DNA of 64,000 bases from Actinomycetota bacterium (GCA_046046455.1 JBJOJS010000054.1:31434-95433); one strand, 5' to 3'; positions 4,993 through 53,598 are shown, counted from the first letter of the stretch. Notes: generated from the letters alone by a model not told the origin. Made by a program: numbers and translations.

Positions 4993-5927
<935 letters not shown>

Positions 5928-34198: not shown

Positions 34199-34206
34199 GC
34201 CGATAC
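34199..34206 (+). promoter_or_regulatory. Sigma-28-type -10 element upstream of the minor pilin operon
   Basis: GCCGATAC 27 nt before GTG 34234. Confidence 0.65.
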
Positions 34207-34233
34207 TGCTGTGGGAGGAAGGAGGCACGTCGA

Positions 34234-35505
34234 GTGCCGGTTCGGCGCCGCCCTGACGAGGGATTCACGCTGATCGAGGTGGTCGTGGCGATGGCCGTGT
34301 TCACCGCGGTCTCCTTGGCGACCCTGGCCGTCGTCCTCACCTCCCTACGAACGGTCCGTGAGAACGAGGACCGGGTGATTGCGGCCAACCTGGCGCGTTC
34401 GGTCTTCTCGGGCCTGCGGGTCGCCGGGGCGGCCGACGTCCCGCTCGGCCGCACGGTCGTCCAGCAGGATGGCTTCACGGTGACCACCGACGCGGCATGG
34501 GTCGGTGTCGCGCAGACGGCAAGCGCCTGCGATGAGGCTGCCCCGGGGGCCGACTTCCTTCGTGTCGAGGTCTCGGTCGATGGCGGGACTCTCGATTCCG
34601 CCCAGGTGATCGCAGGAGTGGTTCCCGCGCCCGAGGGCGGGCCAGAGGGTCCGCGTGGGTCTGTCGCCGTCTCGATAGGGGATCGGTTCGGCAACCCACT
34701 TCCGGACGTTCTCGTCACCGGCGACGATCCCTTCCACCCGAACAATGACTTCGCCCTGATCAGCGGAGCGGACGGATGCGTCTTCCTGCCCGGCTTGGAA
34801 CCGACGGGCTCGCTCGTCGTATCCGTCAGTGGCGAGGTGAAGGGTGTCTCCCTGATAGCACCCACACCCCAGGCGAGTCAGTCGCAGGCACAGGTCGTGG
34901 CCGATCAGGTCACGCGGCTGGACTTCACGCTCGCGTTGCCAGCGGCCCTGCGCCTGGTGGGGGACGACACGGCCTACCCCGTCCCCGCAGACATCCTGGC
35001 GTCGTGGCAGGGGTCGGGCACCGGGACCGTCGCGACCGCGACCCCGTTGCGCACGCGCCTCGATGGCCTGTGGCCTGCCACCACGGGTTTCACCGCGTGG
35101 CTCGGCAACTGTTCCGCGTCGAGCCCGGTGCAGTACGGCGAGCAGCCGGCTGTCTTCGATCTCGCACCGGGTGAGCTCACGACGGTGGATCTCATCGGCG
35201 CCCGCCTGCGTGCGAAGGGCCTGGCTACGCGTGGTCGACTCGATGCCATCTATGTCCCGATCGCCGGGGATTCGTGCAATGGCTTCACCGTCGATGTCGG
35301 GACGGCGGACGATAGCGGCGTCCTCGACTTCACCCTGCCGTATGGCACGTGGGAGTTCCGCTCCGAGGGTCAGGTCCGTCGGCCGGCGGCTCTTGTACCG
35401 TCCCCGGATCGCACGGTCGTCACCTTCGATCTGCAGCCCACTCCGAGTCCGTCGCCCAGTGCCTCGCCATCGGCGAGCCCCGCTGCGTCGGGGGGCCAGC
35501 CATGA
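34234..35505 (+). CDS. Type IV minor pilin (PilV-like) with a large C-terminal beta domain
   Basis: Class III signal RRRPDEG|FTLIEVVVAMAVF; RBS AGGAGG; Pro/Ser-rich tail. Confidence 0.82.
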   Translation: MPVRRRPDEGFTLIEVVVAMAVFTAVSLATLAVVLTSLRTVRENEDRVIAANLARSVFSGLRVAGAADVPLGRTVVQQDGFTVTTDAAWVGVAQTASACDEAAPGADFLRVEVSVDGGTLDSAQVIAGVVPAPEGGPEGPRGSVAVSIGDRFGNPLPDVLVTGDDPFHPNNDFALISGADGCVFLPGLEPTGSLVVSVSGEVKGVSLIAPTPQASQSQAQVVADQVTRLDFTLALPAALRLVGDDTAYPVPADILASWQGSGTGTVATATPLRTRLDGLWPATTGFTAWLGNCSASSPVQYGEQPAVFDLAPGELTTVDLIGARLRAKGLATRGRLDAIYVPIAGDSCNGFTVDVGTADDSGVLDFTLPYGTWEFRSEGQVRRPAALVPSPDRTVVTFDLQPTPSPSPSASPSASPAASGGQP

Positions 35506-36200
35506 AGTCGCCGAGCATGACTCGACGCACCCCTCGCCCCGGTCCGGATGGCGGTTTCACCGCGGTCGAGCTTGTGGTGGCCGTGGGAATCTTCAGTGTG
35601 CTGGCGATGCTGAGTGCGACGGCGATGATCTACCTCTTCGGCGGGATCCGCGAGGTCTCGTCGGGTACGCAGCTCCAGGCGCAGTCGCAGAACTCTGCGG
35701 AGTGGGTGAGCCGGTTGCTCCGCTACACCGATCAGGTCCCGGGAGCCACGGCCGCGATCGTGTCCGCGGCACCGGATCGGATCACGGTCAACACGTGGTC
35801 GGGCACGGGCGACGACCCCGATGCTGCCTACCGGGCCCGTCTCATCGTCATCCCCGATGGCGATGGCTATGCCCTGGTGAGCGATGTTGCCGAAGGACAG
35901 CTGAACGCAGGTGCGTGGTCCTGGACCGGTGACTGGCAGTCCGCTGCCGTGCCTGCGGGCGCGAGTCGTCGGGTGCTGCTGCAGGTGCCCGCCAGCACAG
36001 GGCCCCCCTTCAACGTCAAAGTGATTGCCTGCCGACCCGATCTCGGCTGCTCCGCGACCTCACGTGATGCGACACCCATGACTCCCGGCCCCGTGGTCCT
36101 GGCCGCCGGCGAGGAGGTCGTAGCCCTCGAGGTGCTCCTCGGCGATGTCGATGATCCGTTGAACGCGGTCACCCAGCGGATCGAGCTGGTGAACCAATGA
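35502..36200 (+). CDS. Type IV minor pilin (PilW-like)
   Basis: DGG|FTAVELVVAVGIF; ATGA overlaps with both neighbours. Confidence 0.82.
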   Translation: MKSPSMTRRTPRPGPDGGFTAVELVVAVGIFSVLAMLSATAMIYLFGGIREVSSGTQLQAQSQNSAEWVSRLLRYTDQVPGATAAIVSAAPDRITVNTWSGTGDDPDAAYRARLIVIPDGDGYALVSDVAEGQLNAGAWSWTGDWQSAAVPAGASRRVLLQVPASTGPPFNVKVIACRPDLGCSATSRDATPMTPGPVVLAAGEEVVALEVLLGDVDDPLNAVTQRIELVNQ

Positions 36201-38374
36201 CCGAGAGGGAGTCCTGCGACGCGTCGAAGCGCGACAGCGGCATTGCCATGATCATGGTCCTGCTGTGGAGCGTCCTGCTCCTGGCGATCGCCCTGGCTGT
36301 GACCGTAGTGGCGCTGCGCCAGATCCAGCCGTCGGATGCGAGCGAGAAGTCGTACGCCGCCCTCGCCGCTGCGGAGGCGGGGATCGAGGACTACCTGGTC
36401 AGGCTTCGACAGCCCGGCTACGAGTCCACGATCGATCCCAGCAACCCGGCATTCACGTCTTTCGTGCCTGTCCCGGGTGGCGCGACGGCCGGGGAGTTCA
36501 CGTATGCGGTCGATACCTCACGGGCGAGGTCAGGGGGGGAGATCCGCGTGTACTCCACGGGCCGCTCGGGTGGCATCGAACGCACCGTGGAGGCCGTGCT
36601 CTCCCGTCGCACGCCGCTCGATTACGTCTACCTCAGCGACATCGAGACACCATCCCCTGAGGTCCCCGGCTCGTACTCCACGCGTGCCGGCACGGGTGGC
36701 AACACCACCACGACCGCTCGCCAGCTTGCTGAGGCGCTCTGCAGTCGCCGCTGGTACGAGGCTGGACAGGTCGGTCCCAATGGGCAGGTGGGGAATCAGC
36801 GCAATATCCGCTACTGCCAATGGGCGGGCATCTACGCGTCCGAGCGCATCTTCGGCCGAATCCACACGAACGACGTCTGGGTCCTCGAAAATGCGGACCT
36901 CTCCCAGGCCATCCAGGTCGGCGCCATCTCGTCGTCGTGCCGAAGCGAAGCCGAGGGGATCGTGGCGGGTGAGGTCGGTTGCCCGGCTAACCATCGGTAC
37001 ATCGCGAGCAACACCCTGTCATCAGGGCGCATCGTCGACCGCACATGGACGTCGCAGACGAGCACCTACCAGGGCGATTCCTATCGACCATCGGGTGCCG
37101 AGGTCACCCGGCGCAACCCCCGCTACGAGCCGCCGCTCGAACTGCCCACCGCGGCGGCGACGGCCGCGAAGTTCAAGGTCTTCGCGGCTGAGTCGGGCTG
37201 CATCTTCACCGGGCCGACGCGCATTCGCTTCGATGTCGTGGCAGGCCGTGGTGTCGCCTATGTCACCAGCCCGGACACGAAGCAGACCGGGACCGGCTGC
37301 GGGACCGGGTATGCAGCGACCACGGGAGCGCCGACGTCCCAGCAGACGCGGATGATCTATCTCGATCAGTTCGATGACCTCGTGATCTTCATCCAGGACC
37401 TTCCGCTCGCGGGGGTCGACGATCCGAGCAATCCCCTGGACGTGGCCAACGTATGGGCGGCGGGCACCGCCCCCACCTGCCAGATCAAGACGTACGGCAC
37501 GACCTCATCGCCCTACCCCTACGTGGTCCCCAACGTCAGCGCGGATTCTGGAGAGGCGGCACTCTTCTCGGCGACTTCGCGCCCGGAAGGCTTCCCCTCG
37601 GCGTACGCCGACCCGACCAATGCCTGGTACGCGTCGAATTGCGGCCTGGGTGATGTCTACGTCCAGGGCACGGCCAAGGGCCGCGTCACCGTCGCCGCCG
37701 AGAACAACATCGTCCTCACGGGCTCGCTGCGGGATTCCACCGCCCAGAGTGGCGGCACGGACAACGGCAAGCCTGCCGCGAGTTCCCAGACGAGTGTCGG
37801 GATGGTGGCGGGTCAGTTCGCCTACCTCTATCGTCCGCTCACGTCCACGACGTCGAGCCCCGCATGGGTGACTGACTGGCGTACGTCGAACGCGTCGGAC
37901 CCGGTCCTCAACGCCGCAATCCTCGCCGTGGATCAATGCTTCGGAGCCCAGGATGCCGAGTACGGCAGCCGCAATGGATCCATCTACCTCTGGGGGTCGC
38001 TCTCTCAGAAGTATCGCTGCATCGTCGGCTTCACCGGCGGCTACTCCAAGAGCTACAAGTACGACGACCGCCTGACCTGGCAGGCACCGCCCTACTTCGT
38101 CGCGCTCTTCGACGAGCCCTGGGAGGTCCGGCGCTGGGGCGAGGTCACGCCGCGGCAGCAGGCGCCGGGGACGACCGAGTGGGAGTTGCCACTGTCACCG
38201 GGTGAGTCGGTGATCGATGCGCAGGTCGTCTTCGGTGATGCCAGCGTCACCCAGGACGGAGTGAGCGCGTCCGTGACGGCCCGCAGCGATGGTCAGGTCA
38301 TCGTGCGCTACCGCGTGAGCACTGCCTCCGGCTTCCGATACCGGCACCTCGTGATCCTGGTCGCATCCCCGTAG
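36197..38374 (+). CDS. Large PilX-like minor pilin / putative tip adhesin
   Basis: RDSG|IAMIMVLL (no Glu5), ALAAAEAGIEDY, late GYSKSYKYDDRL...PPYF; rich in Cys and Thr. Confidence 0.8.
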   Translation: MTERESCDASKRDSGIAMIMVLLWSVLLLAIALAVTVVALRQIQPSDASEKSYAALAAAEAGIEDYLVRLRQPGYESTIDPSNPAFTSFVPVPGGATAGEFTYAVDTSRARSGGEIRVYSTGRSGGIERTVEAVLSRRTPLDYVYLSDIETPSPEVPGSYSTRAGTGGNTTTTARQLAEALCSRRWYEAGQVGPNGQVGNQRNIRYCQWAGIYASERIFGRIHTNDVWVLENADLSQAIQVGAISSSCRSEAEGIVAGEVGCPANHRYIASNTLSSGRIVDRTWTSQTSTYQGDSYRPSGAEVTRRNPRYEPPLELPTAAATAAKFKVFAAESGCIFTGPTRIRFDVVAGRGVAYVTSPDTKQTGTGCGTGYAATTGAPTSQQTRMIYLDQFDDLVIFIQDLPLAGVDDPSNPLDVANVWAAGTAPTCQIKTYGTTSSPYPYVVPNVSADSGEAALFSATSRPEGFPSAYADPTNAWYASNCGLGDVYVQGTAKGRVTVAAENNIVLTGSLRDSTAQSGGTDNGKPAASSQTSVGMVAGQFAYLYRPLTSTTSSPAWVTDWRTSNASDPVLNAAILAVDQCFGAQDAEYGSRNGSIYLWGSLSQKYRCIVGFTGGYSKSYKYDDRLTWQAPPYFVALFDEPWEVRRWGEVTPRQQAPGTTEWELPLSPGESVIDAQVVFGDASVTQDGVSASVTARSDGQVIVRYRVSTASGFRYRHLVILVASP

Positions 38375-38424
38375 GATCGAGTTCCCCGAGGATCGAGGGC
38401 GGTGAGCAGTCGAGGAGGGCGCGC

Positions 38425-39198
38425 GTGAGCGATCGCCAGCTTGACGCCTTCGTCCCCTGGGCCCTCCAGTCAGCCGATGTCTTGGAACTGGCGGCGTGTG
38501 AGGCGGCCCAGTCGGGCGACGCGGCTCGTGCCGTGGGGCTTGCCTGGAGCGCCGACCTTCACCGAGTCCAGGGCGCGCTCTGGTCGGAGCTCGTCGTCAC
38601 CCAGCAGTTGAGCCGCCGCGAGTTCTTCCACATACTGCAGGATCTCGTGGCGTCTCCCGACGACGCACCGGCGTTGTCGGAATCGGCACAGGATGCCCTC
38701 GACAGGTCGCGCATGACATTGCTCGCCGGGCTGGGGGAGATCATTCCCGACGGCGTCGCCCTGGCACATGTTCCTGAGTTGGCATCCCTTCCGGCCCCGG
38801 ACGCCGATGCCTGGGATCGGCTGCGATTGAGCCTTCTCAGTGGCATGCGACCCGACGACCTGGTTGAGACGCGGCGACGGCAGTCGGCAGATCTCATGCT
38901 GCGCGCGCTTCGGGCACAGCAATCCGGCGACGACGCAGAGGCCATCCGTCTGGCATATGACTCGGACATGGCGTCCCTGGAGGCCTATCTTGTCGAGTCG
39001 GCCACTGCGGTGGGCGACGCTCCGCTCGTGACGGTCGCCGCACGCTGGGCACTGGTGGCGCATCGTATGTCGGGTCTGCCTGCCCTCCCGTGGGAGTTCC
39101 TCGGAGCGGTGCGCGCCGTGCGCATGGTCCTTGCCGAGGCCCTGGGCGATTCCGACGGAGCCCGCATGCTGGCAGGTCTCCAATCCTTCTCCGCCTAG
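38425..39198 (+). CDS. Hypothetical helical protein with an internal duplication
   Basis: RBS GAGGAGG; two copies of QSAD...QSGD...A..LA...D, 138 aa apart. Confidence 0.7.
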   Translation: MSDRQLDAFVPWALQSADVLELAACEAAQSGDAARAVGLAWSADLHRVQGALWSELVVTQQLSRREFFHILQDLVASPDDAPALSESAQDALDRSRMTLLAGLGEIIPDGVALAHVPELASLPAPDADAWDRLRLSLLSGMRPDDLVETRRRQSADLMLRALRAQQSGDDAEAIRLAYDSDMASLEAYLVESATAVGDAPLVTVAARWALVAHRMSGLPALPWEFLGAVRAVRMVLAEALGDSDGARMLAGLQSFSA

Positions 39199-39866
39199 GG
39201 GGCCGCGGCCGGCGAGGAAGGCGCCGGAGCAGGTTCCCCGGCCTGCGCGGCTACCTTCTCCGCGGCCGCGACCAGGTCCGGCAGCGGCGTCTGCAAGACG
39301 AAGAAGGTGCCCGTGACGGACGCCGTCCACGGGGACCGCGGACCCGGATCGGGTCGGTCGACGGTGATGGCCGTGATGAGGAGTGAGCGCTCGAGCCCCT
39401 CCAGATTGCCGAGGAACTTCAGGACGGCGGCCTCGGGGCCCTCGACCGTCATGTCGACCTGCATGGTGGCCAGCGCGACCCCGGATTCACTGGCATCGAC
39501 CTCGACGCTCACGGGTACTCCCGTGTTGATCACGGAGATGCTGCCGGGCTCGATGCCAGCCGACGTCGCCGCCTTGGTGAGCTGCCGCAGCAGCCGTGGC
39601 TGCTGTGCAGACTGCGGCATGCGTGCGAAGACCTGCTGCGCCTGACGGGCGGCTTCGGGCAGTGCTGCGGCCAATGCGTCGAGGTCGCGTTGCTTGCGCT
39701 GCAGGCTGATCTGCGTCAACTCGAGGTCGGCCGCGGCGGTCTGCAATTCGGCTGTCTCGGAGAGTCGCGGAGACAGGACAAGGAGCCACAGCAGGCCAGC
39801 GAGGAGTCCCAGCGTCAGTACGGCCACCACGCCCGCGGCCCCTACCCGAGTGAGACGGATCCTCAT
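39195..39866 (-). CDS. pilO: Type IV pilus protein PilO
   Basis: One N-terminal TM, a coiled coil, then RMP...LLRQL and FLGNLEGLERSLLITAI; third gene of the MNO operon. Confidence 0.8.
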   Translation of the reverse strand: MRIRLTRVGAAGVVAVLTLGLLAGLLWLLVLSPRLSETAELQTAAADLELTQISLQRKQRDLDALAAALPEAARQAQQVFARMPQSAQQPRLLRQLTKAATSAGIEPGSISVINTGVPVSVEVDASESGVALATMQVDMTVEGPEAAVLKFLGNLEGLERSLLITAITVDRPDPGPRSPWTASVTGTFFVLQTPLPDLVAAAEKVAAQAGEPAPAPSSPAAAP

Positions 39867-40600
39867 GGCGTCGCCTCCGGCACCGTTGTGTCGTCCGCGG
39901 CGGCAAGGGCGGCGATGACGGAGTCGTCGGAGATCGGTGCCACGAGCCCCTTGAGGGAGATGCCGACGCTCCCGGTGAAGGTGACCGTGCTGGCCGCGTC
40001 GGATGTCGTGCTGCTGACGTACGGCCCGATGAAGAACGGATCCTTCTCGAGTTCGGCAATGAACCGGGCCACCTCTTCTCGGCTTCCCGCCGTAGCCGAG
40101 AAGTCGACGCAGCCGATGGTGACGCGTTCCGAGAACGGATCCGGAGTCGGGCAGCGATTGATGTCCTCGCTGACCTTGGGGATCCCGTGGTAGACGACCG
40201 TGACCTTGCTGAAGCGGACATTGCCTCCGGCCGCGGCAGCTGCTTCGAGGCGAGCGAGGGTGACGACAGCCTGCGGCGACGAGGCGAGCGTGTCCGATAC
40301 GAGCCCCTCGAGCCGCTCGAGTTGTCCGTAGAAGTTGCCGACCGGTCCGAGGGCATTGACCTTCGCCTGGATCGCGGCGTTCTGCGCCGTGAGGTCCTCG
40401 ACCCGAGAAGCAGCGGATCCGATGGACGGTCCGACCGACCACCACACGAGACCCGTCAACGCCACGATGATGACGGCGGCTATCGCGGTGCGGCGAGCGA
40501 TGGTCGCGATCCGCAGGGACTGCGTCACGTCAGCGGGGAGAAGATCCACCCGTGGCGACGGCGGCGGAGTTGTCGGGCGAGGGGTCGCAGGTGACGTCAT
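39863..40600 (-). CDS. pilN: Type IV pilus protein PilN
   Basis: PRVDLLP (INLLP-type PilM-binding motif), TM, coiled coil and VARFIAELE. Confidence 0.78.
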   Translation of the reverse strand: MTSPATPRPTTPPPSPRVDLLPADVTQSLRIATIARRTAIAAVIIVALTGLVWWSVGPSIGSAASRVEDLTAQNAAIQAKVNALGPVGNFYGQLERLEGLVSDTLASSPQAVVTLARLEAAAAAGGNVRFSKVTVVYHGIPKVSEDINRCPTPDPFSERVTIGCVDFSATAGSREEVARFIAELEKDPFFIGPYVSSTTSDAASTVTFTGSVGISLKGLVAPISDDSVIAALAAADDTTVPEATP

Positions 40601-41709
40601 GGCAGCGCCAACCCGAGTGCGCAGGTGTAGCGGCCGTCCGGAGGCAGATGACGTTGAACACGCGGGGCAAGGGAGAGACCGGCGAAGGGCGCCAGGATGT
40701 CGACCGGCTTGCGGACCTGGGTCTCTATGCGCTCGGCGAGGCCCGGCATGGCACTGACCCGTCCCGTAAGGGTGATGCGGGCGACCTGGGTGCCCACTCC
40801 GGACGTGTCGAGGTAGTCAAGGGAGTCCTGGATCTCCTTGACCACCGTCGTCGCCCAGCGCCCCAACTCCGCGACGACACGTTCATTGTCGAGGTCGCGC
40901 TCACTGCGGTCGGCTGACGGCAGGCCCGTGAAGACCGACGATTCGGCAATGGGAGTGAGCACAGGAGCCGGCGCCTTGAGTCCGACCGTCATCTTCCGGA
41001 GCTCGGCCGCTTCTTCCGTCATGCCGAGGGCCTCCTGCAGGGCAGTCGTTGCGGCCCGCCCACCCACGGTGCCCACGGAGCGGATGAGCAAGGGCGTGCC
41101 CCCTGCGTGGATCACGACCGTCAGGTGGTCGGCTCCGAGGTCGACCAGCATGGCCGGACGGGGATCCGGGTCGGCATTCAGAGCCGTGCGGAGCAGGGCG
41201 AAGGCGCTGGCATCGGCGGCGATGGGTCGCACCCCGCCCTTGCGCAGAGCCTTCGCGGTGTCGCGCACCGCCTCGGTGGCCGTCGCCACGAGCAGAATGC
41301 GGCTCGTTTCGGGTGTGCCTGAGGGGGTCGCCCCGCGGGTCTCCAGCAGCGAGTAGTCGAGTTCGACCGTGCGCACGTCGACCGGCAACGCATCCTGCAC
41401 CTGGTAGCGCAGGGCCGATCGGAAGTCCTCGGGTTCCATCCACGGCAGGTCCATTTGGCGGGTGAGCACGGCCGGTACGCCGAATACGGCCCGGCGGGTG
41501 GAGAAGCGCCCCCGGCGCCACAGGCGACGGATCGCCTTCGAGACCACAGCCGGGTCCCGCACCGCTCCGTGGTCCAAGGCCCCCGGAGGGAGTTCGACCT
41601 CGGCGGCCCGGATGACCTCGGGCCCCTGGCCCCTCAGGGACACCTCGACCGCGCGGATCCCGGTGGCGCCGAGGTCGATGCCTACGGCGCGACGGGAGGA
41701 CAGCAGCAT
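40597..41709 (-). CDS. pilM: Type IV pilus actin-like protein PilM
   Basis: VGIDLGATGIRAVEV, VDLGA, GG...T and ALGLAL. Confidence 0.88.
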   Translation of the reverse strand: MLLSSRRAVGIDLGATGIRAVEVSLRGQGPEVIRAAEVELPPGALDHGAVRDPAVVSKAIRRLWRRGRFSTRRAVFGVPAVLTRQMDLPWMEPEDFRSALRYQVQDALPVDVRTVELDYSLLETRGATPSGTPETSRILLVATATEAVRDTAKALRKGGVRPIAADASAFALLRTALNADPDPRPAMLVDLGADHLTVVIHAGGTPLLIRSVGTVGGRAATTALQEALGMTEEAAELRKMTVGLKAPAPVLTPIAESSVFTGLPSADRSERDLDNERVVAELGRWATTVVKEIQDSLDYLDTSGVGTQVARITLTGRVSAMPGLAERIETQVRKPVDILAPFAGLSLAPRVQRHLPPDGRYTCALGLALP

Positions 41710-41746
41710 GTCCCTCCCTCGGTGTGCGCGCGTGCCTTCGTGGACA

Positions 41747-41798: not shown

Positions 41799-41805
41799 TC
41801 CTCGC

Positions 41806-44584: not shown

Positions 44585-44592
44585 GAGTAGCC

Positions 44593-45921: not shown

Positions 45922-47125
45922 CTACCGGGTCCGGGCTCGCTCCAAGCAGGGCAAGCTCGTCGAGCAGAAGATCAAGGCCTCCAGCGAGGGCGAGGCTGCC
46001 TCTCGCGTGCAGCAACTCGGACTCGTGCCCATCTCCATCGAGCCTCTCGGCAAGGGCCTCAATCGGGAGATTCGATTCGGGGCCGGCAAGGTCAAGACCA
46101 AGGACCTCGCCATCTTCGCTCGGCAGTTCTCCACCATGCTGGCGTCCGGATTGCCCATCCTGCGCTGCCTGTCCATCCTCAGCCAGCAGACCGAGTCCAC
46201 CCGGCTGCGTGAGCTCCTCGATCAGATGAGGGTGGAGGTCGAGAAGGGTTCAGCGCTGTCCGAGACGATGGCGCAGCGCAAGGAGTTTCCCCCGCTCATG
46301 GTCAGCATGACTCGTGCAGGCGAGGTGGGCGGTTTCCTCGACTCGACGATGCGCCAGATCGCCACCTCCCTCGAGGCGGATGTCAAGCTCCGGGGTCGCA
46401 TCAAGGCCGCGCTCACCTACCCGGTGGCCGTAGGCGTCATCGCGGTGTTGATCGTCACGGGGATGCTCATCTTCGTGGTGCCTGTCTTCGCCTCGATGTT
46501 CGACTCATTCGGTGGCACGCTGCCCTTGCCCACCCAGGTGCTCGTGACGCTGTCGAATCTCATCAAGGACCCCCGCTTCTTCGTACCGTTGCTGGCGGCC
46601 ATCGTGATCGGCGTCTTCCTCTATCGGCGCAACGCTCGCAATCCACGACTGCGAGCCGTGGTGGACCCGCTGAAGTTCAAGATCCCGGTCTTCGGGTCGC
46701 TTCTCAAGAAGGTCGCCATCGCGCGATTCACACGGAACCTGTCGTCCCTGCTCGCGGCCGGCGTCCCGATCCTCACCTCCCTCGACATCGTGGCGGATAC
46801 GTCGGGCAATGCCGTGATCGCCAACGCCGTCGGCGAAGTGAAGGAAAGCGTCCGCCAAGGCAGCGGAATCGCCAAGCCCCTCGAAGCCGAAGGGGTCTTC
46901 CCGGACATGGTGGTCCAGATGATCTCCGTGGGCGAGTCGACCGGATCCCTCGACGAGATGCTGGCCCGGATCGCCGACTTCTACGACCAGGAGGTCGAGG
47001 CGACCACGGAGCAGTTGACGGCCCTGATCGAGCCGATCATGATCGTGGTCCTCGGCGGGGTGGTGGGGGCCATGATCATCGCTCTCTACCTGCCGATCTT
47101 CTCGATTTTCGACCTCATCAAGTGA
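45908..47125 (+). CDS. pilC: Type IV pilus platform protein
   Basis: FARQFSTML.SGLP, AGEVGG.LD, ALTYP, GESTGSLD, LIEP and YLPIF. Confidence 0.94.
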   Translation: MAQTDYRVRARSKQGKLVEQKIKASSEGEAASRVQQLGLVPISIEPLGKGLNREIRFGAGKVKTKDLAIFARQFSTMLASGLPILRCLSILSQQTESTRLRELLDQMRVEVEKGSALSETMAQRKEFPPLMVSMTRAGEVGGFLDSTMRQIATSLEADVKLRGRIKAALTYPVAVGVIAVLIVTGMLIFVVPVFASMFDSFGGTLPLPTQVLVTLSNLIKDPRFFVPLLAAIVIGVFLYRRNARNPRLRAVVDPLKFKIPVFGSLLKKVAIARFTRNLSSLLAAGVPILTSLDIVADTSGNAVIANAVGEVKESVRQGSGIAKPLEAEGVFPDMVVQMISVGESTGSLDEMLARIADFYDQEVEATTEQLTALIEPIMIVVLGGVVGAMIIALYLPIFSIFDLIK

Positions 47126-47245
47126 GGTTCGGATCACGTGAGGTTCAGCCTCCCGGGAACTTCTGCGAATTCGGTCCGATACCCAGGTCAGCGGGTCGAG
47201 TGACCCCTCCCGGCAGTCCCGGGCACGAAGATTTGGGAGTCGACG

Positions 47246-47692
47246 ATGTTCGCTCGCGTCGCAGCAGTCCGCGAAGCCCGGGCCAAGGGGGAGTCCGGCT
47301 TCACCCTCATTGAGCTCCTCGTGGTGGTCGCCATCATCGGCATCCTGGCCGCCATCGCCATTCCGTTCTTCCTCAACCAGCGCAACTCCGCTCGCGATGC
47401 GTCCGTGGAGTCCGATATTCGGAACGCCGCCACCTCACTCGAGACGGCATACACCCGGGATGGCGTCTATCCGGCCACCGGAACCGATCTCACCTCGGCG
47501 CCCTACGCGGTCAACGTCTCACAGGGCAATGGCCTGGCCGTGACCGTGGCCGCCAGCGGCTCCTCCTACGTGATCGTCGGCTGCAACTCCGAGTCCGAGA
47601 CGGTCTTCTACTTCGATTCCGCCGCCAGCGGCTTCGGGGATGCGCCGGCAGGGACAGCCTGCCCGGCGAGCGGCATCAGCATCACCAACTAG
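47246..47692 (+). CDS. pilA: Major type IVa pilin
   Basis: KGESG|FTLIELLVVVAIIGILAAIAIP; C-terminal Cys pair; own TCCGATAC element (47175-47182) and terminator. Confidence 0.88.
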   Translation: MFARVAAVREARAKGESGFTLIELLVVVAIIGILAAIAIPFFLNQRNSARDASVESDIRNAATSLETAYTRDGVYPATGTDLTSAPYAVNVSQGNGLAVTVAASGSSYVIVGCNSESETVFYFDSAASGFGDAPAGTACPASGISITN

Positions 47693-47713
47693 AGCAGCAT
47701 CACGAACGACGTG

Positions 47714-47743
47714 GCGGGGGTCGGCCGAAAGGCCGCCCCCCGC
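47714..47743 (+). terminator. Hairpin after pilA
   Basis: GCGGGGGtCGGCC-GAAA-GGCCGcCCCCCGC. Confidence 0.72.
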
Positions 47744-47805
47744 ATAGTCGATTCACCGCGAAATCGGGCCAGGGGGAGCACTAGACTCCTCATCGGGAGG
47801 TCGCC

Positions 47806-48270
47806 ATGACGTCAGTCGCGCAGGCACCGAAGACTCGTATATCGAAGTCCGGAGCATCCATGCCGGTCGCGATCGATCCGCGCTCCGTCGCGGACCTGGG
47901 TTTCGAACGCCACATCGATGTCGCACTGCGACTCCACATTCCCCGCGACCAGGCGGTCCTGGCCGCCCGAGCTCTCGGTGCCTTCATCGCCGACACGGAA
48001 GGCTTCGCTGCCCGCGTCGCCGGCCTCGACGTGGCTGCCGACCGCACCGACATCACGCTGGCCGTTTCCCTGGGCACGACGGAGCAGATCCGCTCGAGCG
48101 CCGATGCGTCGGTCCGAGCACTCCGATCGCTCACTCGACTCGTCGACTCGATGAGTCACTACGCGCCTGCATTCGTCTCGATACCGGCGCCTGAATCCGC
48201 CGAGGCCCGCGCTGCTGCCAGCCTGGTGGCCGGAGCCGACTCCTTCGCCTGGATCTCCGCGACCGCCTGA
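47806..48270 (+). CDS. Hypothetical protein, first gene of the sigma operon
   Basis: RBS GGAGG at 47796-47800, -10 TAGACT at 47782-47787; stop 2 nt before the sigma ATG. Confidence 0.72.
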   Translation: MTSVAQAPKTRISKSGASMPVAIDPRSVADLGFERHIDVALRLHIPRDQAVLAARALGAFIADTEGFAARVAGLDVAADRTDITLAVSLGTTEQIRSSADASVRALRSLTRLVDSMSHYAPAFVSIPAPESAEARAAASLVAGADSFAWISATA

Positions 48271-48272
48271 CC

Positions 48273-49367
48273 ATGGCCGGCGAGTCGGTCGGTGATGACG
48301 AGGAGATCATCACCGCAGGCAACCGCCGCGGTCGTCGTCTGCCGGACCTCGTCGTCGATGGGCTCGACGAACACGAGATCTTCAGCTTCGCCCCCGTCAT
48401 GCGGTGCGATCGCATCTACTGGGGCACCTCAGATCCCATCGATCTGCGTGCGCTGCTGAGCGATCTCGGTCCGCAGGCATGGACCCGCCAGTGGAGCGAC
48501 GGCCTCTGCCGGGTATGGGTGCCCGAAGGCAACGGGGAGCATGCGCGTGAACGCATCCGTGCCTGGTGCGAGGAGCGAGACATCGAGCCTGTCAACCTCC
48601 GCGTGGAGTCCGGTGTTGCCTTCCGAGACCTCGATCTGATCCCGTCAGGCCTCCTACCCGCTTTGATCGCGGCATGCGTCGACTGGCTCTATCCGCATAC
48701 GTCGTCGATCCAGCGACGCCTCGTGGCCGAACTTCCCGGCGTAGATGACGACGACGTGCGAGGCATGATGTATCTCTTCGTGCACGACCTCGCGGATCGT
48801 TTCGACTCCGACCGACAGGGTCGCAATGGCGCCCTCAACTTCACCGCGTTCGCGCTCGGCAAGATCCGGACGTGGCCGCAGGATGCGGCGCGGTCGGTCC
48901 ACGGGAGAGTGCTCGCCAATGATCGTGCGGCCCTCGGCAAGCTGGCGGCCGCCATCGCGGCCCAGGAGGGGCGTGCGGCGACGGAAGCTGAGCGCGCAGA
49001 AGCGCTCGGAGTTGGCATCACCGAACTCCGTAAGCGCGAGGAAGCGGTGCAGGGACTCATGCGACTGCGCCATATGGACCCCATCCTCGAACCCGACGAT
49101 GTCCAGATGGCGAGCAGTACTGACCGCGACGTTGCGGACGAGGCTCTGGATGCCATCCTGCGGTCGGACCTCACTCGCGAGTTGCTGCGGGCTGTCGATC
49201 CTGGCGATGGCAGGGCTGATCCCCTAGGGCTCGCGGCCGTCTACCTGGGATTCTGGGAGGGCCTTGGCAGGTCTGAGATCGCAGACGAGTTGGGTGTCAG
49301 TCCCAAGACAGTCTCCTCTGCTATGGCAAGGACCCTGCGCGATATCGACGCGAGCAGGTTCGCATGA
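48273..49367 (+). CDS. Divergent FliA/WhiG-like sigma-70 factor with an N-terminal extension
   Basis: Region 2: RRLVAELPGVDDDD...DLADRFD...FTAFALGKIR....DAAR. Region 3: EGRAATEAERAEALGV. Region 4: LGFWEGLGRSEIADELGVSPKTVS. Confidence 0.78.
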   Translation: MAGESVGDDEEIITAGNRRGRRLPDLVVDGLDEHEIFSFAPVMRCDRIYWGTSDPIDLRALLSDLGPQAWTRQWSDGLCRVWVPEGNGEHARERIRAWCEERDIEPVNLRVESGVAFRDLDLIPSGLLPALIAACVDWLYPHTSSIQRRLVAELPGVDDDDVRGMMYLFVHDLADRFDSDRQGRNGALNFTAFALGKIRTWPQDAARSVHGRVLANDRAALGKLAAAIAAQEGRAATEAERAEALGVGITELRKREEAVQGLMRLRHMDPILEPDDVQMASSTDRDVADEALDAILRSDLTRELLRAVDPGDGRADPLGLAAVYLGFWEGLGRSEIADELGVSPKTVSSAMARTLRDIDASRFA

Positions 49368-50068
49368 CCGCCGACGCCGTCCCCTGGATCTTCACCGACG
49401 AGCCAGGACTCCTGCAGTGGGCATGGGTCACCGACCACTTCATGGCGCGCATCAGTGCGGTGCAGGCGGGTGTAGGCGCGGATGGGCAGAGGCTCATCAG
49501 GTCCATGCATTGGGAGTTGGCCGATCGGATGAGGCTCCAGCAGGGTGTGCCCCGGCTGCTCATCGAGGGAGACGCGCGGAGCTTCGACGAGGCCGAGTCG
49601 GCGCTGCGTGAGCACGTCGCCAAGTGCTACGACCCACGCCTCGGCTACCGCCGCTACGCGGGTGCTCTGGCCTTCACCTTCGAACTCTCGAGCGGCGAGC
49701 GCGTCGACGTGTCCCGCTACATCGGACGCGAGGTCACCGTGACCGTGCTCCAGGCCGGTGGCGAGCGCACCACGGTGCGCGGCGACTTCGACGTCTCCGG
49801 ATATCGCTGGCGGGTCCGTGGCACCGACTCCGTCTACGACGTGGTCCCCGAGCACGCGGTGAGCATCAGCGACCGATCCGTCTTCGCCCAGGAGGCCGAG
49901 GAACTCGTGCGCCCAGCCTCCTACTCGGGGGTCGGCCGCATCTACCGGGAGGATCCGCGCCCCGGATGCACCGGCACACCGGGCTTCCTCTCGCAGACAG
50001 TGGACCACGCCGGCCGCCCGCGGTGCCCCCTGCATGAACGTGACCTACCTGACCATGTTCTGCACTGA
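49364..50068 (+). CDS. Hypothetical protein coupled to the sigma gene, with a C-terminal Cys/His cluster
   Basis: ATGA overlap with the sigma stop; GC3-rich codons; C-x12-H-x5-C-x2-H near the C-terminus. Confidence 0.78.
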   Translation: MTADAVPWIFTDEPGLLQWAWVTDHFMARISAVQAGVGADGQRLIRSMHWELADRMRLQQGVPRLLIEGDARSFDEAESALREHVAKCYDPRLGYRRYAGALAFTFELSSGERVDVSRYIGREVTVTVLQAGGERTTVRGDFDVSGYRWRVRGTDSVYDVVPEHAVSISDRSVFAQEAEELVRPASYSGVGRIYREDPRPGCTGTPGFLSQTVDHAGRPRCPLHERDLPDHVLH

Positions 50069-50091
50069 TGACCATGTTCTGCACTGATGAC
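50050..50091. repeat. 19-bp tandem duplication spanning the stop codon
   Basis: TGACCATGTTCTGCACTGA at 50050 and 50069, followed by TGAC. Confidence 0.92.
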
Positions 50092-50167
50092 ACTGTGCCC
50101 TCGTCCGGCCTCATGCGAGGCTGGTGGAGATCGATGGCCGAATGAGCCGATACCGGAGGGGAGACTC

Positions 50168-50917
50168 ATGAAGAGGAGGAACCCCGTGGAGTCGACGTTC
50201 GCCGTCGCCGTGGATTTCGCGTCATCGACGGTGGGTCGCGCACTGCACGAGGCCAGTGCCGATGGCTTCGATGGGGCGCTGGCCTTCTCCGGGTCGGCCT
50301 CGGGTCGGATCTACTGCTTCGAGGGCTCCGCCTACGCGGCGGAGGTCGAGGGGTTCACGCCTGATGTCGAGCGGCGACTCGTGACGTCAGGGGCATTGAC
50401 CGCAGGCGATAGTCCTCGAGCGGCGGTGACCGCCATGCGCCTTACCCCCGAGGCGCTTGCCTCGGTGAACCAGGAGTTCCTCCTCGCGCTGCTGGGGCGT
50501 CTCGCCGAACTACCGGGGTTGGCGGTGGCCCGGCTCCCGCAGGTGGTCACGGCCGAGGGCTGCACGCTGCCCATCCCCTTCGAGTCACTGGTCGAGGTGA
50601 TTCGCCTGCGCCAGGTGCGTTCGATCGAGGATCTGAGTCATGTGGGGGGTGCGGCGTCCGCGCAGGTGGTGCTCGCGCAGCGGGGGGACATGCCGACCGG
50701 ACTGCCGGAACTCAGTGCGCTGTGGACAGCGCTGGGCGACGGCAGCGAACTCGACGCTGCTGCTGCCGCCTGTGGCCTGTCCCGAGCGGAGGCTCTCCAT
50801 CTGGCCGCCAACCTCCTGCGCCAGGAGGCGGCGACGGTCATTTCCACGTGGCCGCGGGTCTCAGGGCCGCCGGCGGTCCCCGAAGCAGTAGGGGCGGGAC
50901 CGGGCCGGAGAGCCTGA
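50168..50917 (+). CDS. DUF4388/PatA-N-like protein
   Basis: ALHEAS..GFDGALAF....SGRIYCFEGSAYAAE......ERRLVTSGALT; helix-turn-helix-like C-terminus; GCCGATAC (50146) and GGAGG upstream. Confidence 0.62.
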   Translation: MKRRNPVESTFAVAVDFASSTVGRALHEASADGFDGALAFSGSASGRIYCFEGSAYAAEVEGFTPDVERRLVTSGALTAGDSPRAAVTAMRLTPEALASVNQEFLLALLGRLAELPGLAVARLPQVVTAEGCTLPIPFESLVEVIRLRQVRSIEDLSHVGGAASAQVVLAQRGDMPTGLPELSALWTALGDGSELDAAAAACGLSRAEALHLAANLLRQEAATVISTWPRVSGPPAVPEAVGAGPGRRA

Positions 50918-51030
50918 TCCTGACGGTGAGCCGATACTAGAACTAGGGCACCACCGGAGTAGGACAGCACGTCAGAACCGCAGTGGCGACGTATGTCACC
51001 GCGAAGATTGCCGAGAGGAGGGGTGGATCA

Positions 51031-51441
51031 ATGCGCGCGTGGATTGGGCACGATGCCGACGCGACCACTCTCCTGCGCACCGGCATGGGCGTGGTCACCG
51101 CAGTTGCGGAGGCGCCTCGCGCGTACGCCGACAGTGGCGCATCATCACTGGTCGAGATTGCCGTAAGCGCCGTCACGCCGAAGGCGATCCGGGTGACCGT
51201 CAAGGCGACGTGTCCGAGGGGCAGCGAGTTGGCCCTGCGCGCGGCGCACCTTGCCGAGACGGGCGAGGAGGTCGCCTGGCTCGTCGAGTGGCGTCGACTG
51301 CCGGGGGTCCCCCCGCAGATCCCGATCACCGATCTCCAACTCCGCACCGATGCTTCCGCGGTGCTGCTGGCGCTGGCGGGCGCCGAATCGGAGTTCTCCG
51401 ACGAGTCCGTGGGAGAGTGGGCACGGGGCTCGGCCTCATGA
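51031..51441 (+). CDS. Hypothetical protein
   Basis: RBS GAGGAGG before ATG 51031; GCCGATAC at 50930; ATGA overlap with the next ORF. Confidence 0.62.
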   Translation: MRAWIGHDADATTLLRTGMGVVTAVAEAPRAYADSGASSLVEIAVSAVTPKAIRVTVKATCPRGSELALRAAHLAETGEEVAWLVEWRRLPGVPPQIPITDLQLRTDASAVLLALAGAESEFSDESVGEWARGSAS

Positions 51442-51722
51442 GCGACCCCGGCAAGTCCCCCTTCCGGGCGGTGCCGCAGGACAGGGTTCTTGCCGACGGC
51501 CGCCAATTCGGGTCCGATGACTCCGGAATCGACTTCTTCGCCGATGCACTTGCCCGGCCGCATACCGACGCCGAAGCGGTCTTCGCCGCAGGGGTGGCGG
51601 CAATGGGCGGGACCGGATCCGCCCAGGGCTGGGTGGCCTTCCGCGGTGACCTCTCCGCCGATCCGGCCGCTCGTGCCGCCTTCATCCTGCATGGCCCGGC
51701 CGGAGTGCGTCGCGAGAACTGA
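51438..51722 (+). CDS. Small hypothetical protein (94 aa)
   Basis: 3' part of ORF 51039..51722; ATG overlaps the previous stop. Confidence 0.55.
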   Translation: MSDPGKSPFRAVPQDRVLADGRQFGSDDSGIDFFADALARPHTDAEAVFAAGVAAMGGTGSAQGWVAFRGDLSADPAARAAFILHGPAGVRREN

Positions 51723-51816
51723 CCCTCGATCGCCCTCCTCGGCAGACTCCTGCTCTATCCGCCGATACCCTGGAGGTGTCCGCTGACGGCACCGACGGCC
51801 CGGAGGGAGCGCCTTC

Positions 51817-53597: not shown

Positions 53598-53598
53598 C

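Follow-up and report, generated by a model that had tools for sequence, protein, structure and literature searches.

Control of type IV pili by WhiG-type sigma factors has already been published (PMC8325347; PMC12871210). WhiG-type promoters with mapped starts drive the pil genes of Rubrobacter (PMC8325347), and such pil promoters have been predicted for further actinobacterial families (PMC12871210). Rubrobacter radiotolerans is comparable to the lineage described here: it is a monoderm actinobacterium without flagella, a sigma factor of the sigma-28 family has been taken over for pili, and several promoters of its pil cluster carry a GCCGATAA-type -10 element with starts mapped just downstream (PMC8325347). 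The Rubrobacter sites were found with a TAAA -35 element (up to two mismatches in all), whereas the 64-kb stretch of DNA analyzed here (hereafter the window) has no TAAA-like -35. In Rubrobacter an ordinary WhiG serves as the sigma factor and is held in check by RsiG, an anti-sigma factor that binds c-di-GMP (PMC8325347); no plausible RsiG signature turned up in the window or in 51 related loci. The -10 block of the window is also longer than that of Rubrobacter (YGRK before CCGAWAC), and its cluster contains an extra, divergent sigma-28-like gene.

A survey of WhiG1 and WhiG2 gave the consensus sequences T(A/C)AA-N16-GCCGATAA and CTCA-N16-17-GCCGAACT, with the central CGA as the most conserved part, and predicted pil targets in Cellulomonadaceae, Sanguibacteraceae, Jonesiaceae, Cryptosporangiaceae, and Rubrobacteraceae (PMC12871210). 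Working from 673 reference genomes, it accepted only promoters with an exact T(A/C)AA or CTCA, a filter that the window's promoters would fail; the passages considered here do not refer to this uncultured lineage or to any sigma gene within a pil cluster (PMC12871210). Our literature search found no sigma gene in an actinobacterial pil cluster beyond these two WhiG papers; their supplementary site tables may bear on novelty.

The flagellar sigma-28 promoters of E. coli and Pseudomonas are alike in having the 8-mer at -15 to -8 with the start 7 nt after it; a conserved arginine reads their GC extended -10, and the A at -11 is flipped out (PMC12784957). However, their targets are flagellar and chemotaxis genes, and they need a -35 of the TAAA type, which region 4.2 reads (PMC12784957), whereas the boxes described here end in C, begin with G or T, and have a weak or absent -35. 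Zoospore pili of Actinoplanes missouriensis are also controlled by a FliA-family sigma factor (cited in PMC8325347), but this organism is flagellated and has several ordinary FliA paralogues.

Box copies in the pilus cluster

The type IV pilus cluster of the window comprises the following genes, according to our own gene list, which was made from GC3 and Pfam/NCBIfam matches:

34234-38374, plus strand, minor pilins
38425-39198, plus strand, ORF
39195-about 39900, minus strand, pilO (Pfam/NCBIfam PilO)
39863-40600, minus strand, pilN
40597-41709, minus strand, pilM (Pfam/NCBIfam PilM_2)
41806-42921, plus strand, pilT-like gene
42914-44584, plus strand, pilB
44593-45921, plus strand, second pilT-like gene (pilT2)
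45833-47125, plus strand, pilC
47246-47692, plus strand, pilA (major pilin)
47806-48270, plus strand, orfA, directly before the sigma-like gene; start maybe ATG 47860
48273-49367, plus strand, divergent sigma-28-like protein of 364 aa, candidate reader of the boxes
49364-50068, plus strand, orfB, its start overlapping the stop of the sigma-like gene
50167-53597, plus strand, orfC, orfD1, small ORF 51435-51722, ParA/MinD-like ATPase 51817-53259, and orfE 53256-53597

Pfam and NCBIfam domains across the pil genes at 34234-47692 were N_methyl, PilO, PilM_2, T2SSE, MshEN, and T2SSF, and the pil gene order is syntenic in the relatives. The motif copies considered in this cluster are as follows:

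34199-34206, plus strand, putative -10 box GCCGATAC of the minor-pilin operon; predicted start 34214
38334-38341, plus strand, TCCGATAC inside the coding 3' end of gene 36197-38374
41747-41754, minus strand, putative -10 box GCCGATAC of pilM-pilN-pilO; predicted start 41739, pilM ATG 41709
41791-41798, plus strand, putative -10 box GCCGATAC of pilT-pilB-pilT2-pilC; predicted start 41806
47175-47182, plus strand, putative -10 box TCCGATAC of pilA (major pilin); predicted start 47190, ATG 47246
50146-50153, plus strand, candidate box GCCGATAC before orfC; predicted start 50161
50930-50937, plus strand, putative -10 box GCCGATAC before orfD1 (50983-51441) and the coupled small ORF 51435-51722; predicted start 50945
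51761-51768, plus strand, GCCGATAC before the ParA/MinD-like gene (51817-53259); weakest-supported of the sites

An earlier note on this DNA had placed the motif before most transcription units of the locus, each copy oriented toward its gene. On recount, its coordinates and orientations were all correct: GCCGATAC occurs 8 times in the window versus 1.84 expected, a number reached by none of 100 dinucleotide-preserving shuffles. Six copies are those listed above; the other two, at 5003 (plus strand) and 16750 (minus strand), lie outside the cluster, inside genes or on the strand opposite to them, and are as many as the roughly two copies expected by chance. The 16 identical bases that the note saw at 41783 and 50138 (CCGAATGAGCCGATAC) and the 7 nt between the 41791 motif and the GTG at 41806 were confirmed as well. 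The heptamer CCGATAC occurs 15 times versus 5.3 expected, and nine of these copies fall in the 13.7% of the window outside the gene list (binomial P = 3.8e-5). Seven of the nine lie within the 743 intergenic bases of the cluster (34137-53597), which hold the six GCCGATAC copies and the TCCGATAC before pilA, each aimed at its gene. Two further heptamers were treated as chance: one at 63947-63953 (minus strand), upstream of a tRNA gene and overlapping a TAGACT box, and one at 28592, which lies 9 nt before an F420-oxidoreductase gene and outside the 30 best matrix matches (see below). CCGATAC inside orfC of the two nearest relatives (L001 and L002) was set aside as codons for T-D-T.

Compared with the classical -10 element GCCGATAA, GCCGATAC matches at 7/8 bases and TCCGATAC at 6/8, and the intergenic sites of the cluster have the GCCGATAA-like form with invariant central CGA that marks a sigma-28 -10 element.

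Conservation and geometry in related loci

The comparison set consisted of 51 related loci of uncultured Actinomycetes (about 0.75 Mb), retrieved with the sigma-like protein as bait; the presence of this protein beside every box is therefore circular. A box was counted if it was co-oriented and within -250 to +60 of the gene start, with nine operon-internal genes as controls. CCGA(T/A)A was found before pilM (27/29), pilT (27/33), pilA (39/39), and orfD1 (31/32), that is, in 124 of 133 cases versus 22 of 306 before operon-internal genes (Fisher P = 7.5e-74). The note's proposal of a FliA/WhiG-like -10 box agrees with the hexamers at these four promoter positions, where the box was the most enriched sequence: in 132 promoter-position versus 306 control regions, CCGATA was counted 65 versus 5 times and CCGAAA 57 versus 5, and the top four enriched hexamers were CCGATA, CCGAAA, CGAAAC, and CGATAC. 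A stricter pattern, [ACT][CT][GC][AG][GT]CCGA[TA]A, had 138 matches in the about 0.75 Mb of loci, 108 of them co-oriented before pilA, pilM, pilT, orfC, or orfD1 and 7 within mapped genes. The family consensus of the relatives' sites is YGRK-CCGAWAC.

These counts bear on the reading that the copies are chance occurrences or a functionless dispersed repeat. The exact copies at 5003 and 16750 and several CCGATAC in coding DNA would suit it, as would the 16-base identity, which, with the tandem duplication beside 50138, shows local duplication to be the origin of at least one copy. However, the shuffles did not reach the observed number, and relatives whose proteins are just 44-60% identical retain the box at four orthologous promoter positions. 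We consider the probability of this reading negligible; on the comparative evidence it is already refuted for the core sites, while 38334 and 51761 may be such copies.

A scoring matrix was built from the relatives alone and then run on the window, where its eight best matches were seven of the earlier note's sites and one other. Only two of the seven exceed all simulated maxima: the pilT site at 41791, the window's top match with 21.7 bits (above the maxima of 20/20 simulated sequences, the highest being 17.2), and the pilA site at 47175 (21.2 bits). The other five score 10-13 bits, which simulated sequences reach about once each by chance, so support for them comes from the exact 8-mer, position, and orientation. 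The 34199 site, whose score of 11.4 bits would not by itself set it apart from chance, is preceded by the TCGG block and lies in the 97-nt gap between a divergent ORF (ATG 34136, minus strand) and the pilin gene; downstream of it follow GGAGG and the GTG at 34234, and it would serve the genes at 34234-35505, 35502-36200, and 36197-38374. The relatives' DNA stops short of this promoter. The orfD1 site at 50930 scores 10.4 bits. The 50146 site (13.0 bits) comes after a perfect 19-nt tandem duplication at 50050-50091 and precedes orfC, which spans about 50167-50917, since a start at the ATG at 50087 would extend the gene too far. A box at the orfC position was found in 14-15 of 45 relatives and is missing in the two nearest, L001 and L002; judged from these sequences, the orfC box is lineage-variable.

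Two of the note's sites fared less well. The 51761 copy exists as described but has the lowest matrix score (10.3 bits) and lacks both the upstream YGRK block and the G three bases before CCGA (present in about 90% of sites). A box stands ahead of the ParA-like gene in just 1 of 34 relatives, and at the equivalent place L001 has TAGTCT, L002 TACGCT, and L034 TAGAGT; the window itself also has TACCCT. TANNNT is the housekeeping -10 consensus of actinobacteria, and 51761 is doubtful as a promoter box. Concerning the TCCGATAC variant, the copy at 47175 held up as the pilA box (relatives have T at the variant position in 27/39), but the one at 38334 did not: it lies within a coding end, is not among the 30 best matrix matches, and has no CCGA[AT]A counterpart before the ORF 38425 homologue in the two relatives reaching that far (L002 and L051). 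It is probably a chance copy.

The note had further predicted starts 6-8 nt downstream of each motif and -10-dominated promoters without a TAAA-like -35, and the sequence comparison is consistent with both predictions. Counted from the first C of CCGA in 121 aligned sites, a pyrimidine stands at position 13 in 107 and a purine at position 14 in 114, and the window, like 23 of 25 relatives, has its pilT start codon exactly 14 nt from this C. The predicted -1/+1 step thus falls 7 nt after the 8-mer, the same spacing as in the Pseudomonas sigma-28 open complex, (-15)GCCGATAA(-8) (PMC12784957); as far as alignment can tell, this is sigma-28 promoter geometry. None of the seven window sites has TAAA, T(A/C)AA, or CTCA 15-17 nt upstream of the 8-mer, and relatives without an in-cluster whiG show merely a weak G-rich stretch at -35. 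A scan of 34000-53800 for E. coli-type promoters and terminators returned fewer than chance, and Rfam at gathering scores gave no match in 33000-54000.

Taken as sigma-28-class promoters, GCCGATAC would combine the extended -10 and core -10 elements, transcription would start 7 nt after the 8-mer, and the five well-supported copies would head the minor-pilin, pilMNO, pilT-pilB-pilT2-pilC, pilA, and orfD1-onward units. Since the predicted start at 41806 is the G of the GTG start codon, the pilT operon mRNA would be leaderless. The pilA 5' UTR may be hairpin-capped: folding predicted two hairpins, the first beginning at or near +1. The two hairpins came up when 15 of the 40 pilA 5' UTRs were folded singly (modest z-scores, +0.3 to -3.6), and RNAalifold on 28 of the 40 found no consensus structure because MAFFT lost the hairpin register.

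A short conserved box before co-regulated operons could also be the site of a pilus-regulon transcription factor, activator or repressor, rather than a -10 element, and between pilM and pilT the two boxes are arranged head to head in the manner of half-sites. However, the box is strictly oriented with its gene, keeps a fixed 7 nt to the conserved pyrimidine/purine step and the leaderless pilT start codon, shares 7/8 bases with the known -10 consensus, and is single and unpaired at pilA, orfD1, orfC, and the minor pilins; we consider a regulator site very improbable. We prefer to read the cluster boxes as promoters of the sigma-28 (FliA/WhiG) class, with a probability of about 0.75 that covers the promoter class and not the identity of the reader.

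The note's placement of the downstream ORFs in the pilus regulon is likewise favored by synteny of orfA-orfE with the pil genes and by the orfD1 box. Homologues among the 51 loci number 44 for orfA, 46 for orfB, 45 for orfC, 32 for orfD1, 34 for the parA-like gene, and 32 for orfE. The ParA/MinD-like ATPase matches Pfam AAA_31/CbiA; orfC, orfD1, the small ORF, and orfE have no Pfam match, and orfA has none in Pfam or NCBIfam. The Atlas model of orfA is ferredoxin-like at low confidence. As leads only, Atlas look-ups of orfA and the N-terminal domain of the sigma-like protein returned a 356-aa actinobacterial cluster auto-named FliA, ABC-transporter C-terminal domains, and ABM-like folds. In orfB, C202, H215, C221, and H224 are invariant in 38 sequences. 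Its model (pLDDT 91) had no PDB match at E <= 0.001, the best (E 0.02) covering just a small Sm-like barrel sub-domain. A PilZ-like assignment of orfB by eye (RxxxR...DxSxxG) was rejected, as the spacing is wrong and Pfam PilZ is absent.

Candidate readers of the boxes

Such boxes would be read by a sigma-28-family sigma factor, and the lineage offers two candidates: canonical WhiG, encoded in the cluster of 13 relatives, or the divergent sigma-28-like protein. The gene of the latter, an addition beyond the earlier note, is present in every one of the clusters, these loci having been found with it as bait. An N-terminal alpha/beta domain of about 120 residues is followed by sigma domains 2, 3, and 4. 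Its scores are below every curated sigma family cut-off, including NCBIfam FliA_WhiG (TIGR02479; 28.6 bits versus 189.6) and WhiG NF004935 (19.1 versus 343), and Pfam reports Sigma70_r4_2 alone. The best profile matches to solved structures were WhiG 6pfv/6pfj, FliA 6pmi, and SigF 1l0o. In a Foldseek search with its AlphaFold2 model (pLDDT 83), ranks 1-7 were all sigma-28 relatives, namely 9a7s (listed as RPSD, which we take to be B. subtilis SigD), S. venezuelae WhiG, and Aquifex FliA; the alignments spanned about 240 columns, with E values of 3e-5 to 3e-4, and TM-scores were low because the domains are arranged differently. By these profile and model comparisons, the protein has a three-domain group-3 sigma fold (2, 3, 4). 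Complex prediction with orfB (alignments A2 and A3) scored 0.00 against a mark of 0.32, which speaks neither for nor against binding.

The sigma domains are intact across 120 sequences, as are two aligned -10-reading residues: D204 (invariant) aligns with the D of (L/I)DEL and R212 (at least 90%) with the R of VPR in E. coli FliA and in-cluster WhiG. Koo et al., in 2009, reportedly addressed the equivalent arginine of E. coli, R91, and the role of D81. In the Pseudomonas protein, the conserved arginine (R97) reads the extended -10 (PMC12784957). The residues for extended -10 and -10 reading (region 3.0 arginine and region 2.4 aspartate) thus appear, by alignment, to be present. In contrast, the region 4.2 recognition helix reads SPKTVSSAMART versus SESRACQVHGRA of WhiG/FliA in the profile alignment and has hardly a residue in common with WhiG; the protein would accordingly be expected to prefer another -35 or to have no such preference. 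A comparison of this helix with -35 type across loci by eye was merely suggestive and was dropped for a test of whiG presence.

Of the 32 loci with DNA across the orfD1-parA interval, 13 have a canonical whiG within the cluster. Eleven exceed the TIGR02479 cut-off (198-235 bits); of the two below it, one ORF runs off its contig and the other aligns with just the first 195 of the profile's 224 positions. Neither the 64-kb window nor the retrieved DNA of the 38 remaining loci, 19 of them spanning the interval, contained a canonical whiG. GGTTCA or GTTCA was present at the -35 of pilA or orfD1 in 12 of 12 whiG-bearing rows versus 0 of 19 without whiG, the window included. The GGTTCA form at pilA and orfD1 of whiG-bearing relatives is GGTTCA-N17-CCGA, equal to TTCA-N16-KCCGA, one base from the CTCA form of the survey (PMC12871210). 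On well-supported branches, whiG was gained or lost at least 3 times; the whiG-GTTCA link rests on 3 independent contrasts (5 on all branches), and the sign test was not significant (P = 0.25). The signature of RsiG is E-x3-S-x2-R-x3-Q-x3-D; searching all six frames of the window and of the 51 loci for this motif gave no plausible match, the one match being in an unrelated frame.

The window lacks whiG and GGTTCA while its -10 box is fully kept, which favors the divergent sigma as reader; we see roughly even odds that this protein reads the largely -10-driven promoters in the window's genome. With just 64 kb in view, however, a canonical WhiG/FliA encoded elsewhere may be the reader, and the divergent protein could then act at another promoter, as an anti-sigma decoy, or as a regulator. 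The box is one base off the classical GCCGATAA, a canonical whiG sits in the same cluster in 13 relatives, and the divergent protein scores far under every sigma family cut-off. In Rubrobacter, ordinary WhiG drives pil genes from such boxes, with mapped starts, so the box does not need a divergent protein (PMC8325347). On the other hand, neither the window nor the DNA of 38 other loci contains a canonical whiG, the absence of the GTTCA -35 from all 19 rows without whiG, the window included, would be hard to explain by a mere relocation of the same WhiG, and the divergent protein keeps its sigma domains and both -10-reading residues across 120 sequences. A WhiG encoded elsewhere is thus a real possibility, which we hold to be distinctly below an even chance; the rest of the probability belongs to both proteins or neither.

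Favoring the divergent protein, we tentatively propose, at somewhat less than even odds, that this N-terminally extended sigma is a dedicated pilus sigma factor that reads YGRK-CCGAWAC with little or no -35 contact. In-cluster WhiG would add a GGTTCA layer at pilA and orfD1, and at least three WhiG losses, each with -35 decay, would have left the divergent sigma as sole reader, as in the window.

Implications for monoderm pili

Type IV pili of monoderms are poorly understood, and pilus regulation is obscure in the abundant uncultured Actinomycetes of freshwater and soil. The box gives a ready operon map of the 20-kb cluster and may connect the pilus with seven conserved genes of unknown function, namely orfA, orfB, orfC, orfD1, the small ORF, the ParA-like ATPase, and orfE. 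If the proposed reading is true, two sigma-28-type genes paired with two promoter sub-types in one cluster would constitute a compact natural case of sigma factor duplication, specialization, and replacement.

Pilus cluster and motif copies in the window

The gene map was drawn from third-position GC together with Pfam and NCBIfam matches. The window is high-GC actinobacterial DNA (approximately 68%) that carries the housekeeping genes glnR, ppk, phoU, carD, ispD, cysS, and an SpoU methylase gene, and the order of the pilus cluster genes was mapped from 34.1 to 53.6 kb as follows (orfA to orfE are cluster genes of unknown function).

Genes of the pilus cluster
34234-38374 (+), three minor pilins, prepilin-type
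38425-39198 (+), conserved unknown ORF
39195-41709 (-), pilO, pilN, pilM
41806-47692 (+), pilT-like, pilB, second pilT-like (pilT2), pilC, pilA
47806-48270 (+), orfA
48273-49367 (+), sigma-like gene
49364-50068 (+), orfB
about 50167-50917 (+), orfC
50983-51441 (+), orfD1
51435-51722 (+), small coupled ORF
51817-53259 (+), ParA/MinD-like ATPase
53256-53597 (+), orfE

Divergent from the minor-pilin promoter region, a 908-aa ORF at 31410-34136 (-) showed good coding statistics and no match in Pfam or NCBIfam. A GC-rich hairpin (47713-47744) 3' of the pilA stop is followed by TAGACT (47783-47788) upstream of orfA, which raises the possibility of a separate housekeeping-type promoter for the orfA-sigma-orfB operon. 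With a mean column identity of 61%, the orfB product is as conserved as the sigma-like protein, and its invariant C202, H215, C221, and H224 form a possible metal site; its structure model is confident, and the fold search returned no solved structural relative. The ParA/MinD-like ATPase (51817-53259) has approximately 190 additional N-terminal residues, an architecture that presumably resembles TadZ/CpaE of Tad pili.

The motif GCCGATAC, proposed in an earlier note as a FliA/WhiG-like -10 box heading most of the pilus transcription units, occurs eight times in the 64-kb window compared with 1.84 expected from dinucleotide-preserving shuffles, none of which (0/100) reached eight copies. Six copies lie exactly where the earlier note had located them; the two outside the cluster, at 5003 and 16750, fall within coding sequence or antisense to it, and their number is the chance expectation. 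The variant TCCGATAC was likewise found at 47175 and 38334, and the 16-base identity CCGAATGAGCCGATAC between 41783 and 50138 is real. Intergenic DNA constitutes 13.7% of the window and holds 9 of its 15 CCGATAC heptamers (binomial P = 3.8e-5), and the intergenic DNA of the pilus cluster (743 bases) contains 7 of these. Intergenic heptamers also occur at 63947-63953 (-), approximately 75 nt before tRNA-Arg(CCT) and overlapping TAGACT, and at 28592-28598 (+), 9 nt 5' of the ATG of an F420-dependent PPOX-class oxidoreductase gene; these copies have a low score or lack the remaining promoter pattern.

Conservation and anatomy of the boxes

A large protein set contained 169 relatives (E <= 0.001) of the product of the sigma-like gene, a divergent sigma-28-like protein of 364 aa; among the 120 matches listed, identity was 44-77% over the full length, and nearly all were unnamed or annotated 'hypothetical'. 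A scan of species-representative genomes with an alignment of 18 relatives (A1) yielded 51 loci, every one from metagenome-assembled uncultured Actinomycetes and many titled Candidatus Nanopelagicales, and up to 10 kb of flank was fetched on either side, which stops short of the minor-pilin promoter. Gene order was the same across loci according to tblastn with the window proteins as queries, and missing homologues are mostly due to contig ends. Boxes were counted as co-oriented CCGA[TA]A within -250 to +60 of the estimated gene start.

Homologues among the 51 loci, and boxes before the genes
pilM: homologue 29/51; box 27/29
pilT: homologue 34/51; box 27/33
pilA: homologue 39/51; box 39/39
orfD1: homologue 32/51; box 31/32
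orfC: homologue 45/51; box 10/45
orfA: homologue 44/51; box 10/41
pilO: homologue 26/51; box 1/26
pilN: homologue 26/51; box 0/26
pilB: homologue 34/51; box 2/30
pilT2: homologue 34/51; box 5/32
pilC: homologue 37/51; box 3/34
sigma-like gene: box 2/46
orfB: homologue 46/51; box 5/46
parA-like: homologue 34/51; box 1/34
orfE: homologue 32/51; box 3/32

A box was present at the four promoter positions (pilM, pilT, pilA, and orfD1) in 124/133 cases and before the nine internal genes in 22/306 (Fisher P = 7.5e-74). When hexamers were counted without a motif assumption in 132 promoter-position and 306 control regions, CCGATA, CCGAAA, CGAAAC, and CGATAC were the most enriched, and GGTTCA was likewise enriched (23 vs 1). 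A stricter 11-mer pattern gave 138 matches over all loci, 108 of them co-oriented before pilA, pilM, pilT, orfC, or orfD1 and 7 inside mapped genes. In four relatives (L022-L024 and L043), orfA is preceded by a CCGATAC box that also fits the strict upstream pattern, in place of a housekeeping-type element, and CCGATAC was also seen there in L021 and L040.

The sequence logo was built from one site per region within gene-specific distance ranges set by the analyst, and out-of-range regions were dropped, leaving 121 of 124 (27 pilM, 25 pilT, 39 pilA, and 30 orfD1). The core CCGA(T/A)A, followed by C, is preceded by Y-G-R-K, with G three bases 5' of the core in approximately 90% of sites, and a weak G-rich stretch lies 18-23 nt 5'. 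Counted from the first C, position 13 is a pyrimidine in 107/121 sites and position 14, which is 7 nt past the 8-mer, is a purine in 114/121. The spacing of this step exactly equals the sigma-28 geometry, (-15)GCCGATAA(-8), given in PMC12784957. Because position 14 coincides exactly with the first base of the pilT start codon in the window and in 23/25 relatives (of the two exceptions, one is an inner site picked wrongly and the other differs by one position), the pilT operon is predicted to be leaderless, for which a reading of the boxes as regulator sites would not account. With this spacing, the predicted transcription starts in the window are 34214, 41739 (-), 41806, 47190, 50161, and 50945. 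We put the probability that the boxes are sigma-28-class promoters at roughly three in four.

The predicted pilA 5' UTR (window 47190-47235) opens with a hairpin of variable sequence and conserved pairing among relatives, and the second hairpin, which follows it, is nearly invariant (ACCCC...GGGGT). A search of Rfam gave no match; the structure looks like a stabilising 5' cap for pilin mRNA.

A scan matrix built from the relatives only was then applied to the window. The eight best matches were the seven sites of the earlier note other than 38334, plus 63953 (-).

Best matrix matches in the window (first C of CCGA)
41792, pilT promoter, 21.7 bits
47176, pilA promoter, 21.2 bits
50147, orfC promoter, 13.0 bits
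63953 (-), no promoter assigned, 5' of tRNA gene, 12.4 bits
34200, minor-pilin promoter, 11.4 bits
41753 (-), pilM promoter, 11.1 bits
50931, orfD1 promoter, 10.4 bits
51762, parA-like promoter, 10.3 bits

The maxima in 20 simulated sequences ranged from 9.4 to 17.2 bits, and thus only 41792 and 47176 stand out by score alone; the other putative promoters rest on the exact 8-mer, location, and conservation. The match at 63953 (-) precedes the tRNA-Arg gene, overlaps a TAGACT box, and was treated as a chance copy. The site at 38334 is unsupported; it falls within coding DNA, and neither of the two relatives that reach it shows a counterpart. At 51761, the exact 8-mer is indeed present, but it has no upstream block, and just 1/34 relatives have a box there. 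The equivalent place reads TAGTCT in L001, TACGCT in L002, and TAGAGT in L034, and the window has TACCCT inside the motif; a housekeeping promoter may lie here. The orfC promoter was found in 14-15/45 relatives and is absent from the two nearest. In the window, it lies just 3' of a perfect tandem duplication of 19 nt (2.2 copies; 50050-50091) that crosses the orfB stop codon; this duplication and the 16 bases shared with the pilT promoter suggest that the site was gained locally and recently.

The divergent sigma-28-like protein

The SigF, SigB/F/G, and FliA/WhiG models matched the protein encoded at 48273-49367 only below threshold. By family profile, its best solved relatives were Streptomyces venezuelae WhiG, Escherichia coli FliA, and SigF. 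The AlphaFold2 model (pLDDT 83) predicts an alpha/beta domain at the N terminus, with helical domains after it, and its best Foldseek matches, of approximately 240 columns each, were all sigma-28 relatives: the 9a7s model listed as RPSD, which we take to be Bacillus subtilis SigD, WhiG, and FliA of Aquifex and Pseudomonas. In the alignment, D204 and R212 occupy the places of the aspartate and arginine in the -10-reading segment of sigma-28, and the region 4.2 helix differs from its sigma-28 counterpart.

The family is small: of 1.84 billion representatives, 104 fall at E <= 0.001, and canonical-length sigmas were reached only at E ~1e-4 to 1e-6. A Pfam scan of 14 representatives gave three sub-threshold Sigma70_r3 matches, one ordinary sigma, and ten without a match. 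Longer relatives (~420-570 aa; P0130-P0195) carry an extra 100-200 N-terminal residues; in the Pfam scan, eight of them were covered, three with a sub-threshold Sigma70_r3 match and five without a match. In the Atlas, a 356-aa actinobacterial cluster auto-named FliA has the same N-terminal domain fold.

Canonical whiG in relatives and the candidate reader of the boxes

When the loci were searched by tblastn with 11 canonical-looking sigmas, a second sigma gene was found in 13 (L005-L010, L015, L016, L018, L026, L033, L037, and L045); it sits in the interval from orfD1 to the ParA-like gene and is encoded on the opposite strand. This gene is a canonical FliA/WhiG (whiG), with TIGR02479 above cut-off in 11/13; of the remaining two, one ORF is cut by a contig end, and one matches only the first 195/224 profile positions. 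No canonical whiG was found in the DNA searched for the window and the other 38 loci, 19 of which span the orfD1-parA interval. The box upstream of the in-cluster whiG has CGA replaced in the 13 relatives (e.g., L010 15701-15709, -), reading exactly KCCAATACY in 9/13 and CCCATAC in L006 and L045; this box might act as a weak promoter under auto-regulation or be read by the other sigma of the cluster.

In four whiG-bearing relatives, a TGAG-CCGATAC box was seen at the gene for a single-span membrane protein of 68-78 aa, which is convergent with orfE. The start codon of this gene is positioned exactly 7 nt 3' of the 8-mer, and the gene is a predicted further leaderless regulon member.

Small membrane protein gene
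L009 18444-18650 (-)
L016 18269-18475 (-)
L026 18118-18354 (-)
L033 18057-18272 (-)

In a 49-row tree built from the sigma-like protein, the whiG-bearing loci do not form one clade; whiG presence needs five changes, at least three on well-supported branches. GTTCA occurred at the -35 of pilA or orfD1 in 12/12 whiG-bearing rows and in 0/19 rows without whiG, window included. All three independent contrasts agreed (3/3), but with P = 0.25 in the sign test, the association of GTTCA with whiG is suggestive, not significant.

Our reading is that GGTTCA serves as the -35 of canonical WhiG and that departure of whiG from the cluster would lead to its decay, with the -10 block left intact. Since that block is intact where GGTTCA has decayed, it would be read by another sigma with the same -10 preference, and the natural candidate is the divergent protein. 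We regard the divergent protein as the reader in this genome at even odds. Against it, the loci were fetched using this very protein as bait, Rubrobacter manages without such a protein (PMC8325347), and a whiG may lie elsewhere in the genome. We give a smaller though substantial probability to reading of the boxes by a canonical WhiG from another part of the genome.

WhiG-type promoters with mapped starts are described in Rubrobacter pil clusters (PMC8325347), cited for Actinoplanes pil genes (in PMC8325347), and predicted for five further families (PMC12871210); therefore, the promoter class found here belongs to a known kind. Genes for diguanylate cyclases or phosphodiesterases are part of the regulon in Rubrobacter. 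No report was found in the literature searched, supplementary tables aside, of the long -10 block, the weak -35, the leaderless pilT, a second, divergent sigma-28-like gene in the cluster, or the apparent whiG turnover. These features represent variants on a known theme.
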